Source: Octopus vulgaris (taxonomy: Eukaryota). From it: a DNA stretch of 64,000 bases. Below are positions 41,998-46,180 of the stretch, in pieces. The first letter of the stretch is position 1; each line of letters begins with the position of its first letter. Where the stretch lies: NCBI GenBank assembly GCA_951406725.2, contig OX597832.1, forward strand, positions 42,904,001 through 42,968,000, written 5' to 3'. The position numbers were made by a program, and so were the translations under genes. Under the pieces are notes generated by a model. That model was not told the origin of the DNA, did no database searches, and saw only the letters and a list, made by a program, of their open reading frames with translations.

Positions 41998-42226
41998 CTA
42001 TGTTTGACTTTTGCTTTATATTTGTACAAGTTGGCTCCAAGTCTCACCCAGAGACCTCAAGAGACAACAGGGTTGGAAGTTCATGTTGTTGTTATGCCTA
42101 GTGTGCCATATATTTGGGGGGTGGGGATGTTGTACTAATGAATGTCTAAAAAGAAAAAAAAAGGGTTTTTTTTTTTTTTTTTTTTTTTTTTTAAACCGAA
42201 AATTATGTTTGTTTTAAACCTTGAGA

Positions 42227-45223
42227 TTACATAGAGAGTATTTTGCGTAGGATATGAGCAGTTCCCATGAGCACTATCTTTTGAACTTCTGCCATTTTTG
42301 GGTTTCCTGGTATCTGAGTTAGGTAGCTATCAGCCCCTTTTGCTATCATTCCCAGGGCACCTATGACAACAGGTATTGTTTTAGTCTTCAGCTTCCACAT
42401 TTTGCTGATTTCTATTTCAAGATCTTTATATTTGCTCAGTTTTTGGTAGGTCTTGACAGATACGTTTATATCGATTGGGACAGTCATATCAATGAGGAGG
42501 CATGTTCTTTGTTTGAAGTTTTTCAATATGATGTCTGGCCTATTTGCATCTATCTTCCTGTCAGTTTGAATGGTGAAGTTCCAGAGGAGTGAGATGTGGT
42601 CATTTTCAAGCACTGGGGGTGGTTTGTGTTCCCACCAGTTTTTTTCATGGGGCAAATCCAGGTTTTTACAGATTACCCAGTGAATATATTGTGCAGCTCT
42701 ATCGTGCCTGTTGAGATACTCTGTAGGCGCTAGAAGACTGCACTTGGAGACCACATGGTCAATGGTTTCATTTTGTTGCTTGCATACACGACACGTTGGA
42801 CTGCTTCTGATCTTTAATATGTTGGCCTGGTAGTTTCTTGTTGGTAGGCATTGATCTTGAGCTGCTATGATAAACCCCTCTGTTTCAGATTTTAAGCCAG
42901 AGGCCATTAGCCATTGATGGGTCAGGGCTTTGTCGATATCTGCATTATTCGCTCTCTTTGGGTATTTGCCATAGAGAGGTTTTTCTTGCCATTTATTATT
43001 CAGAATATCTAAGGCCGCAGTTTTGGCACGGGTTTTCATGCGCCTAGCTTTTTCTGTGCTTGTTTCTTGTATATCTATCTCTAATTCCGAAATTGGTTGT
43101 ATTCGGAATTCACTTAGATATTCCTTTGCCTGTTTTGTGACTGAGTATGATGCTTTCTTGTTTTCATGTTTTGAGACAAGTTTTAGCATCCAGTCCTCAG
43201 AGTTTTTCAGGTAGGTGTCTAGGCCAATTGTAGCAATCTTCATTGTTATTGCCAGTTGCAAAAGACCACGGCCTCCCTCTTTTCTTGGCAGATAGAGTCG
43301 TTCTGTATCTGCCTTAGGGTGGTGCATTCTATGCATTGTCAACAGTTTCCTTATTTTTCTGTCGAGCTGACATATTTCAGTAATTGACCAGTTAACAATA
43401 TTGAAACTGTAAGTCACGACTGGTATAGCTAATGCATTGATTGCTTCGATCCTGTTTCTTGCATTCAGCTCTGTCTTGAGTATTGCTCTCACTCTTCGAT
43501 AGCATTCTCTCCTGATCCTTTCCTTCATCTCTGAATGCCTTATTCCGTTCCCTTCAATTATCCCTAGGTACTTGTAGCTCTCCGCTGGGTCTAGTTCTTT
43601 TATGACATTCTGTTGGTCAAGGTTAACGTTAGATGTTTCTGTCATTTTTCCTTTGATAAAGGTAGCCTTTGCACATTTATCGAGGCCGAATTGCATTCTG
43701 ATGTCGTCACTGAATTGTTTGACTATCGCTAGTAAGCCCTTGAGTTGTTGATCATTTTTTGCAAAAAGCTTTAAATCATCCATGTAAACGAGATGATTTA
43801 TATTTTTATCAAACATTTTATACCCGTACTGCGCGTCATTGAGCAGCTTTGAGAGAGGTATTAAGGATAAACAAAAGAGGAGTGGTGACAGTGAGTCACC
43901 CTGGAAAATGCCACACGAAATTTTTACATCACCAGCATTTAGGGATTCACTGTCACTGTTCAGAGTTAGTGTGGTTCTCCATGATCTCATACTTACAGTC
44001 AAGAAGTTTCGCAGAGTTGGTGCTATCTTATACATTTCAAGGCATTTCCTAATCCAGCTATGTGGTAGGCTATCAAAAGCCTTTTTATAGTCTATCCAGG
44101 CTATTGATAAGTTTTTGTGTCGTTTGTGACAATCTTCTAAGATCATCTTATTGATGAGTAGTTGGTCTTTACAGCCGTAGGATCCACGTTTACATCCTTT
44201 CTGTTCATTAGGGAATATGCTGCTGTCTGTTAAAAAACTATAGGTATATTCCGTCAGGACAGATGTTAGTGTTTTGTACATAGTTGTTAAGCAGGTTATG
44301 GGTCTATAGTTTTTTGGTTCATTTGTTTCTTCACTTTTTGGAAGCAGGAATGTTAACCCATTAACTAGCCAAGGAGGCATCCTACTAGGGTGTTGCAAAA
44401 CATCATTGTACAGTTCTGTTAGCAGTTCATGGCTCTCTGGGAAGGCATTCAGCCAGAAGTTAGGAATTTTATCCTTTCCTGGAGACTTCCATTTGCTTGA
44501 CCTCCTGAGAGCAGATCTTATATCTTCTACCTTGACACCCTCCCACTTTTGCTCTTCTAAGGGGTCCAGTTCTGTAGATATTCTGTCAATCCAGGGGGCC
44601 TTTTCGTTGTGTGTTTTTTCTTCTGCCCAGATTTTATTCCAAAATCTCTGCACTTCTTCTTTTGATGGTACAGACCCTGCAGTAAACGCTGTTTTTCCTA
44701 TCTTCCTGTAAAAATTCTTGGTATTATTTTTGAACATGTTGTTGTCCTTGAAAAATCTAACACGCTTTTCATACCTCGCTATGCGGGCAGCTTTGGCAGA
44801 TACCTTTTGTTTGATGGTTTCTATGGTGGCATCAATATCAAGTATAGTTTTCATATTGTATTTTTTCAGTAATTTTTGGGTTTTTGTAGGTTTGGTAATC
44901 TTGTGAGCCTTAAGGTTTTTCAAATATTCAATGTCAGATCTAAATATTTTAATTTGTTGTTGCAGACGCTCTTGCCAAGAAGGCTTTTTGTGGGACTGTT
45001 GCCGTTTTCTAATCTTTACACCACATAGGATCGTTGAGATTTTCGCGGATGCATAGTATAGGTGGTTGAGGTTTGTGATATCAACATCATTAACTGAAAT
45101 TATATCCTTAAGTGCAAGCCGGATTTTACCAATTATTTTCATGTTTTGGTTAGAGTTGCGGATTTTAGGAAGTGTATCACGCTCATCCATGCTGGTTTCT
45201 TTAATTTTCAGCCATTCAATCAT
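42227..45223 (-). CDS. Reverse transcriptase plus CCHC zinc finger plus restriction-like endonuclease (998 aa; C-terminal part of the element ORF)
   Basis: RT motifs KSPGKDKIPNFW, NYRPITCL, WIDYKKAFDSLPH, GIFQGDSLSPLLF, YMDDLK and YKYLG. Zinc finger CRVCKQQNETIDHVVSKC followed by RHD. RLE core RPDIIL...IDMTVP...KLSKY. Confidence 0.95.
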   Translation of the reverse strand: MIEWLKIKETSMDERDTLPKIRNSNQNMKIIGKIRLALKDIISVNDVDITNLNHLYYASAKISTILCGVKIRKRQQSHKKPSWQERLQQQIKIFRSDIEYLKNLKAHKITKPTKTQKLLKKYNMKTILDIDATIETIKQKVSAKAARIARYEKRVRFFKDNNMFKNNTKNFYRKIGKTAFTAGSVPSKEEVQRFWNKIWAEEKTHNEKAPWIDRISTELDPLEEQKWEGVKVEDIRSALRRSSKWKSPGKDKIPNFWLNAFPESHELLTELYNDVLQHPSRMPPWLVNGLTFLLPKSEETNEPKNYRPITCLTTMYKTLTSVLTEYTYSFLTDSSIFPNEQKGCKRGSYGCKDQLLINKMILEDCHKRHKNLSIAWIDYKKAFDSLPHSWIRKCLEMYKIAPTLRNFLTVSMRSWRTTLTLNSDSESLNAGDVKISCGIFQGDSLSPLLFCLSLIPLSKLLNDAQYGYKMFDKNINHLVYMDDLKLFAKNDQQLKGLLAIVKQFSDDIRMQFGLDKCAKATFIKGKMTETSNVNLDQQNVIKELDPAESYKYLGIIEGNGIRHSEMKERIRRECYRRVRAILKTELNARNRIEAINALAIPVVTYSFNIVNWSITEICQLDRKIRKLLTMHRMHHPKADTERLYLPRKEGGRGLLQLAITMKIATIGLDTYLKNSEDWMLKLVSKHENKKASYSVTKQAKEYLSEFRIQPISELEIDIQETSTEKARRMKTRAKTAALDILNNKWQEKPLYGKYPKRANNADIDKALTHQWLMASGLKSETEGFIIAAQDQCLPTRNYQANILKIRSSPTCRVCKQQNETIDHVVSKCSLLAPTEYLNRHDRAAQYIHWVICKNLDLPHEKNWWEHKPPPVLENDHISLLWNFTIQTDRKIDANRPDIILKNFKQRTCLLIDMTVPIDINVSVKTYQKLSKYKDLEIEISKMWKLKTKTIPVVIGALGMIAKGADSYLTQIPGNPKMAEVQKIVLMGTAHILRKILSM

Positions 45224-45234
45224 GATTTGATTTT

Positions 45235-46047
45235 TTAGCTCATGTAGTTCTCTGTTGGGTCAATATTTGTGTGACTTTCTTTATCTATTTGATGCTCATC
45301 TGTCTTAGTGTTTATGATTGGTTCAGGGCGTATTTCACTTTGCCTATCACTTATACTAACTCTTTCAATCCTCTCTTCGTTTTTATCCGCCCTGGGCTGG
45401 TCTATAATCATTTCCTCTGTATTATCTTCTCTAGCTGCAGCTTCGTTCATTTTATCCGATATTGCTTGTCTAACCTGATCAATCTCTACTTCAGTCAGTA
45501 ATTTCTTTTTTATAATGTTTCTTCTAACATTGGCAAGCTTGTTACTGTCTATGTAGGGTCTTACTTCAGGGTGTTTCTGTCTCCAGTTTAAGTATGCTTG
45601 TACAGTGCTAGACTTATCTGTGGGGAAATATATGGCATGGTAGAAGGCCTCAAGAACTTCTTTATTATCTTCCCTAGACCATTTTTCCTTCTTTTTCTTT
45701 TGATTATTTGGTGATGAGCATGGATGGCCATCTGTTGGAATATTCCGGTTGTGGGGTTCGTCCAGCTCCTGTGTGTTGGGAAGATTTGATCCAGTAACTG
45801 ATTTTTCAATCAGGATTTGGTTCAATTTTCGGGTACGTGGTCTTTTGTAATCCGCGCAATGACCAATGCGGTTTATTGTTTGATTTGTTGACCTTGAAGC
45901 ATGACGAGCATCCATTCTTATATTAGGAGATGGATCTGTCAGTTTAGGGTTCACTACATGTAAGCATTGCTCATAGCGCCGCTTCTTAAGACTAGCAGAT
46001 CTATATTCGTCTGTATTTTTTTTGTTGATAGTTTTATCTCCGGACAT
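45235..46047 (-). CDS. N-terminal 270 aa of the retrotransposon ORF, separated from the RT part by a -1 frameshift
   Basis: Segment KKEKWSREDNKEVLEAFY...NKLANVRRNIIKKKLLTEVEIDQV resembles the N-termini of RLE-type elements. The downstream frame is open from 45259 (PNRELHELKNQIMIEW), overlapping this ORF at 45238-45259. Confidence 0.75.
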   Translation of the reverse strand: MSGDKTINKKNTDEYRSASLKKRRYEQCLHVVNPKLTDPSPNIRMDARHASRSTNQTINRIGHCADYKRPRTRKLNQILIEKSVTGSNLPNTQELDEPHNRNIPTDGHPCSSPNNQKKKKEKWSREDNKEVLEAFYHAIYFPTDKSSTVQAYLNWRQKHPEVRPYIDSNKLANVRRNIIKKKLLTEVEIDQVRQAISDKMNEAAAREDNTEEMIIDQPRADKNEERIERVSISDRQSEIRPEPIINTKTDEHQIDKESHTNIDPTENYMS

Positions 46048-46180
46048 TTTTTTTTTTTTTTTTTTCCTTTCCTCCTCTTCCTTTCTTCAAGGCTTACTGT
46101 GTCTGTATTAGTTCGAAATAATGAGAATAAAATACGGAGAAGGAAACGAAAAGAAAGGGAAAAAGACGGGATCTGTCAGT

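Follow-up and report, generated by a model that had tools for sequence, protein, structure and literature searches.

The question raised by the 64,000-nucleotide stretch of Octopus vulgaris DNA analysed here (contig OX597832.1, positions 42,904,001 to 42,968,000; the whole stretch is called the window below) is what kind of mobile element occupies a 4.18-kb island of 39% GC lying between arrays of the trinucleotide TTA, and whether it reached this position by choosing the repeat as its target. The island, probably a Dong-type element by the features described below, is on the minus strand (46179-41998), with a 2.3-kb TTA array (39679-41997) on one side and a shorter, partly degenerate array (46180-46488) on the other. 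It is very probably a full-length, frameshifted copy of a high-copy, one-gene retrotransposon without long terminal repeats (non-LTR), which codes for a reverse transcriptase (RT) and an endonuclease and resides in (TAA)n; membership in the R4/Dong clade and insertion by target-primed reverse transcription (TPRT) are both likely. The element is of a known kind and probably belongs to an already catalogued octopus family. Its parts and flanks are the following.

39679-41997, minus strand: (TAA)n array on the 3' side of the element, about 771 units, the longest array among the listed rows, with a 99-bp interruption at 40750-40848
41998-42226, minus strand: 3' untranslated region (UTR), 229 nt long, containing an A27/U-rich stem whose arms lie at 42144-42162 and 42178-42196
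42227-45259, minus strand: downstream frame P0001, 1,010 codons plus stop, coding for linker, RT, thumb, CCHC knuckle and restriction-like endonuclease (RLE)
42440-42538, minus strand: RLE motif P908-D909 ... D924 ... K940, the four residues present in 79, 79, 74 and 79 of 79 rows and aligned to R2Tg residues
42740-42793, minus strand: CCHC zinc knuckle C823, C826, H835, C840, assigned from aligned rows and a zf-RVT match (E=1.6e-4, below its cut-off)
43559-44338, minus strand: RT domain (Pfam RVT_1), YMDD at 43786-43775
45235-46047, minus strand: upstream frame, N-terminal part of the same open reading frame (ORF), with ATGs at 46047 and 45915
45249-45250, minus strand: frameshift, two extra bases absent in contigs of all four compared runs (12, 18, 11 and 1 contigs)
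45418-45687, minus strand: four-helix Myb/SANT-like domain (structure model and structural matches), residues 121-210 when counted from the first ATG, 46047; a predicted binder of the target DNA
45916-46179, minus strand: probable 5' UTR with A18, in which a pyrimidine-rich part precedes a purine-rich one; both ends carry a 13-nt direct repeat, and no ribozyme was detected
46180-46488, minus strand: 5' flank, starting with two to three TAA units, which about 45 nt of degenerate TAA/TGA/TGG separate from (TAA)n that includes a (TGA)n stretch

The downstream frame is free of stops over 1,010 codons from 45259 to 42227, or over 998 when counted from its first Met. Residues 308-567 match Pfam RVT_1 with E=1.9e-27, and an RH(D) motif is present alongside YMDD, CCHC and PD..D..K. 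Conservation of the catalytic positions ranges from 74 to 79 of the 79 aligned rows, and among 234 columns of at least 90% conservation the window copy deviates at five. A previous reading made from the sequence only (the sequence-only reading) had described a nearly intact element with RT motifs, CCHC finger and PD..D endonuclease undamaged over 998 codons. All these motifs are indeed present, but the gene is longer, and a frameshift at about 45249 parts its DNA-binding N-terminus from the RT.

The additional coding sequence is a minus-strand frame of 283 codons (46086-45235), which matches the N-terminus of 80 of the 120 listed homologs and is offset by two bases from the downstream frame, overlapping it by 25 nt (45235-45259). 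The offset was compared with sister copies by aligning contigs from 4 of 24 listed public runs to 42195-46205: in four of four runs the contigs skip two letters at 45249, and the extra bases at about this position are a duplicated dinucleotide. By arithmetic, the ORF without the offset has 1,272 codons from the first ATG and 1,228 from the second. The ATG at 45915 is the likelier start on alignment grounds, since its Met aligns with residue 1 of one relative and the matches of other relatives begin at residues 2-4. Because the relatives join both parts and the sister copies are without the two bases, we infer from these comparisons that the family has a single ORF of approximately 1,230-1,270 codons, and that the window copy is broken as assembled. 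In this form it would yield only an N-terminal piece of 226-270 aa, and if the break is real, the copy would be inactive in cis.

The protein search gave 701 matches. The best 120 range from 63% to 40% identity and many of them are 1,100-1,260 aa long; the top homologs (51-63% identity) are single ORFs, mostly of that same length. The named relatives are from Acropora, Montipora, Exaiptasia and Pediculus; with the exception of Montipora, these genera all supply R4/Dong examples in PMC7998251 (publications are cited here by their accession, and statements about them refer to the portions of their text that were covered). As in R4/Dong elements, there is a single ORF, frameshifted in the window copy, in which the RT is followed by a CCHC motif and an RLE, without an apurinic/apyrimidinic endonuclease (APE) and without N-terminal zinc fingers. 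Insertion in (TAA)n, including the 5' junctions of truncated copies, corresponds to Dong and was seen through the window copy and its relatives together. The features of R2, N-terminal zinc fingers and a site in 28S ribosomal DNA (rDNA), were not found; an Rfam search of the whole window gave no match, so it contains no ribosomal RNA (rRNA) gene. In a quick maximum-likelihood, midpoint-rooted tree of 78 RT regions, for which 49 of 118 related loci had a long enough single match, the protein stands beside a 72%-identical relative, inside a group with the Acropora/Montipora cluster, and a branch of 49 rows (support 95) adds louse, psyllid and shrimp proteins together with 12 TAA-flanked loci. 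The TAA label showed no clustering on this tree, 324 of 500 shuffles scoring as low; as the label is sensitive to how long the contigs are, no conclusion is drawn from this. Nor was the identity of 52-63% to marine relatives taken as evidence of transfer; for cephalopod-cnidarian horizontal transfer of Dong, the literature search gave two papers whose titles and abstracts suggest other subjects.

At the locus itself the relation to TAA repeats is as follows. The sequence-only reading stated that both ends abut TAA repeats. This applies to the 3' end, which joins the 2.3-kb TTA array directly; on the 5' side two to three clean TAA units are followed by about 45 nt in which TAA, TGA and TGG are mixed, and the pure array begins only beyond these. 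The end of the element, previously placed at 46180, moves by one position, as the first non-repeat base is 46179. A target-site duplication is undefinable within such a repeat, and no further copies of the element were found within the window. Because the window is rich in TAA/TTA tracts (24 perfect ones of at least eight units), a single copy between two arrays is weak evidence of targeting.

More informative were the junctions of 118 related loci, which are not fully independent, several sharing a source. A first scan of metagenomes with a single protein found no relative; the loci came from alignment-based scans, in which 80 of 475 metagenome matches were kept. A sense TAA tract was present within 150 nt before 23 of 64 5'-truncated starts of relatives (36%), often within a few bases, and an antisense tract before 1 of 64, whereas among 20,000 random 150-nt windows of the same loci 417 (2.1%) contained a sense tract. 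Since a 3' tail cannot put TAA at 5' breakpoints, these observations indicate that the lineage prefers TAA sites. In relative loci that carry the Myb-like domain the nearest upstream tract was TAA in 8 cases out of 14. The first microsatellite after the ORF was sense TAA at 20 of the 62 evaluable 3' ends, of TGA type at 6 and of other types at 7, and there was none at 29. Taken together, the architecture, the relatives and the relatives' junctions bear out the assignment of the sequence-only reading to an R4/Dong-type RLE element with TAA preference. For the window's own family the TAA evidence is thin and mixed, and support for targeting comes from the relatives.

The N-terminal part of the protein modelled as a conserved four-helix domain (residues 121-210) with pLDDT of about 98 over most of its length and with two invariant Trp residues. 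Its structural neighbours included Sap1, ISWI, Zeste, R2, NCoR2 SANT2, TRF and Reb1, at Z 4.5-6.8 and amid unrelated helical proteins; in a structure atlas it matched the Rap1-Myb cluster at 0.86, and Foldseek with the N-terminal model returned nothing at E<=0.001. No C2H2/CCHC zinc-finger pattern (C-x2-4-C) was found in the upstream frame. The modelled fold is consistent with, and does not prove, the divergent SANT/Myb domain described for R4/Dong in PMC7998251.

Neither UTR folded better than its shuffled versions (z -0.83 for the 5' UTR, z -0.46 for the 3' UTR). An exact 13-nt direct repeat (46169-46181 and 45932-45944, 237 nt apart) bounds the probable 5' UTR, and no likeness was reported beyond these 13 nt. 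On the pyrimidine- and purine-rich 5' stretch Rfam gave only chance microRNA-like matches.

The family is very abundant, with many 5'-truncated copies. Each of 20 of the 24 listed runs (11 studies, five coded organism labels) contained 72-93% of the sampled words. From three large runs 22,000-36,600 contigs were aligned, and their summed depth, which is not equivalent to copy number, was approximately 40-56 times lower in the 5' bin than in the 3' bin, a slope that 5' truncation during TPRT would give. Differences from the family numbered 219, of which 40 were listed and 31 of these fall in the long frame. Of these 31, 20 are synonymous, against a random expectation of 21%, and 21 are at third positions. 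The excess of synonymous differences implies that the lineage was under selection while copying, and the bias as a whole indicates that most of the divergence arose in a replicating lineage and not by decay in place. Some contigs of one run, X2, are separated from the window copy by only 10 substitutions and a 2-nt gap in about 3,460 nt, and an X2 contig is an exact match to the 5' end together with the adjoining 25 nt of degenerate sequence. These sequences would fit a very young subfamily or a break-free allele of the window locus; with one run carrying contigs about 99.7% identical to the window copy, the description of the element as young held up.

Several observations weigh against the assignment to a TAA-targeting Dong family. 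No Octopus-named proteins were among the protein-search matches. The tree was without named Dong, R4, Rex6, R2, NeSL, HERO and CRE references, so that clade membership is argued from architecture, target and the host taxa of relatives. No microsatellite was present at 37 of the 64 truncated starts and 29 of the 62 3' ends of relatives, many of these being distant relatives, short contigs or alignment break-offs. Among the loose ends of the own family (24 listed of 1,927 found, with 11 X2 rows at repeats left out), three on the 5' side were TAA-like and three long X2 ends (42346, 42435, 42775) and one X3 end were not. On structure alone the Myb assignment is weak, given the best Z of 6.8, the Foldseek result and the atlas value of 0.86. 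An HDV (hepatitis delta virus)-like ribozyme, through which the 5' junction of Bombyx Dong self-cleaves (PMC3774820), was found at the 5' end neither by Rfam nor by a descriptor used without a positive control; the descriptor gave no convincing match in nine full-length relatives either.

These points bear on several other explanations of the locus. The TAA repeat might not be the target of the endonuclease at all: the 3' array would then be a tail made by RT slippage, and copies would persist in DNA rich in microsatellites. The unusual length of the 3' array (2.3 kb), the degenerate 5' junction, the frequency of TAA tracts in the window and the own-family 5'-side loose ends that are not TAA would all agree with this, and RTE elements are described as making microsatellite tails (PMC9115989). 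Such a tail cannot explain why sense-strand TAA stands right before the 5'-truncation points of relatives (36% vs 2%), and TAA targeting by Dong is reported in silkworm, mosquito and snail (PMC3812793); we consider the slippage explanation quite unlikely. Assignment to another RLE clade (R2, NeSL/Utopia, HERO or CRE) is less likely again. The order RT-CCHC-RLE is common to all of them, some HERO families target microsatellites (PMC4640811), and the tree held no named references. Against these stand the absence here of the N-terminal zinc finger of R2 and Utopia, the low scores to three solved R2 proteins, and the nesting of the element among TAA-flanked relatives with coral and louse proteins. 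It is extremely improbable that the two frames represent a natural two-ORF or programmed-frameshift design, for which their 25-nt overlap could be cited; this was largely refuted by the relatives in which one protein carries both parts (80 of 120) and by the sister copies lacking the two bases.

A stronger case, still a doubtful one, can be made for this locus as a source copy, intact and transcribed, within a young subfamily, with the frameshift an assembly error or a private allele. The near-identical X2 contigs are records 9, 10, 11, 13, 14 and 16. Run X2 is without the two extra bases, matches the 5' end and 25 nt of the flank beyond it without a difference, and at many listed sites where the other three runs differ shows the letter of the window. 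Whereas the large runs show a gradient, X2 depth stays level at about 15-42 between 42865 and the 5' end, and duplication of a dinucleotide is a typical slippage or polishing error. On the other hand, that X2 is RNA is a guess, and strand, start and level cannot be read from contigs. The span from flank to break is covered by no contig, the degenerate flank may be common to many young copies (X3 and X7 contigs join 42339 to a similar flank), and the contig comparison is silent on whether any run carries the two extra bases. The reading preferred here remains a frameshifted copy, as assembled, of an R4/Dong element that inserts into (TAA)n.

For such an element the following course of insertion can be envisaged. 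An intact sister copy would give a protein of approximately 1,230-1,270 aa that, as R2 biochemistry suggests, would attach to the 3' UTR of its own RNA and would recognise (TAA)n partly through the Myb-like domain, a role in site choice that is drawn from PMC7998251. At the window locus the endonuclease would have nicked the TAA repeat, insertion by TPRT following: by analogy with R2, the RLE would nick the (TTA)n strand and the RNA would be copied from the freed 3'-OH. Most insertion events would stop early and leave 5'-truncated copies, and the event that gave the window copy would have been completed to the 5' end. The R2 work that serves as the basis for 3' UTR binding in cis, nicking by the RLE and TPRT is reviewed in PMC13580325.

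How does the element compare with known systems? In O. vulgaris 51 Dong-R4 families occupying 92.7 Mb are described (Bonar et al. 2026, PMC13282606). Young near-full-length Dong-R4 copies belong to five families with 1,129 insertions (of 2,533 young near-full-length LINE insertions in total), whose mean length is 4,192 bp (4,732,901 bp / 1,129). A full-ORF Dong consensus is reported for O. bimaculoides (Petrosino et al. 2022, PMC9115989), and Dong-R4 is described as expanded in coleoids (PMC8967140). The element of the window, with 4,183 bp, is of the same class and similarly high abundance; neither the target site nor the N-terminal domain is reported in the covered text of PMC13282606 and PMC9115989. 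The suggestion of the sequence-only reading that this could be an undescribed family is, given these catalogues, unlikely if the host is Octopus.

Outside cephalopods, TAA targeting by Dong is called usual in insects, molluscs and cnidarians (PMC7998251), and PMC3812793 lists silkworm, mosquito and a snail as carriers of TAA-targeting Dong elements; according to PMC1635306, Rex6 too inserts in TAA. Dong of Bombyx mori, DongAg of Anopheles gambiae, DongBg of Biomphalaria glabrata and Dong1/2 of ostracods share with the window element the (TAA)n target, the combination of RT and RLE and an N-terminus without zinc fingers; the SANT/Myb-like domain described for them there (PMC3812793, PMC7998251) may have its counterpart in the four-helix domain. 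The HDV-like ribozyme of Bombyx Dong (PMC3774820) was not detected in the window element. The RT-CCHC-RLE order and the catalytic residues of R2 (R2Bm 8GH6/8IBW, R2Tg 9DOU/9NL3) align with those of the element, and residues 150-215 of R2Bm align weakly with the Myb-like domain (Z 4.8). In contrast, the N-terminal zinc fingers of R2 are lacking in the window element, which lies in a dispersed microsatellite and not, as R2 does, at a unique site in 28S rDNA; the RLE clades and their zinc fingers are surveyed in PMC4640811. The solved R2 proteins scored 69-107 bits, compared with more than 860 for the closest relatives in searches of different databases.

As it stands, the locus is one more copy of a known and abundant element type and matters little. 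It could matter more if the locus or its immediate subfamily were the intact, transcribed source of a currently active TAA-targeting octopus Dong family whose insertions are hidden from short-read callers, which we regard as unlikely. Short-read data were interpreted to mean that Dong of O. bimaculoides is not recently active, and insertions in low-complexity DNA are flagged in a filter line by the caller used (PMC9115989); since the caller does so, an element that targets TAA may be undercounted, a conclusion that is our own. Were the idea of an active source correct, the published absence of recent activity of octopus Dong would be a blind spot, because new insertions land in (TAA)n, and the protein would be a natural substrate for the first biochemical dissection of microsatellite targeting in the R4 clade. 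Such targeting was called not well understood in a 2013 review (PMC3812793), and a literature search on the choice of (TAA)n by RLE proteins that have a Myb-like domain alone gave no match, subscription papers being outside its scope. The sequence-only reading also saw interest in the element as an R2-like genome-writing enzyme. The appeal is weak, because (TAA)n sites are very common and scattered through animal genomes and do not offer a single safe site, which makes the element a poor lead for gene writing.

Some further observations concern the relatives. In a few of them a tRNA-like head follows directly after a TAA/TAAA tract; ARAGORN identified a tRNA-Gly in L009:84-168, in one of ten loci scanned. 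Similar heads, which look tRNA- or 5S-like by eye, begin at about 130 in L083 and lie about 800 nt before 3320 in L094. Dong elements with polymerase III heads could account for them, as could short interspersed elements (SINEs) sharing the target. In two distant relatives of about 30% identity the adjoining sequence (L076 after 4256, L110 before 6649) is presumably the 3' end of 18S rRNA, and these are possibly rDNA-targeting elements. Three relatives of 1,357-1,446 aa (P0111, P0118 and P0120) have an extra PF02338 domain, which we take to be an OTU-like protease. In a record of a viral contig collection (L081:3398-5952) a TAA tract of 294 nt comes after a Dong-like element, and many records filed under bacterial genomes or metagenome-assembled genomes (L082-L112) contain such elements as well; those in the bacterial and metagenome-assembled records are most likely contamination from host animals.

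In the remainder of the window no other long coding frames were evident. The TAA array 39679-41997 has several times the length of the next-longest trinucleotide array listed and could be a true expansion or an effect of assembly. Its 99-bp unique island (40750-40848) is without a second copy in the window and had no match when compared with Dong-like proteins; a piece of some other element with a use for TAA arrays is one possible origin, host DNA separating two arrays another. Two dispersed families, with 75-94% identity across the window, are probably SINEs: one of about 420 bp (1200-1611, 2532-2977, 8570-8970, 19983-20422, 48184-48600 and 54354-54809) and one of about 230 bp (4621-4862, 23671-23912, 32669-32890, 49358-49596 and 62627-62866). 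A 362-bp tandem duplication with 99.8% identity at 57736-58510 is either recent or an assembly artefact.

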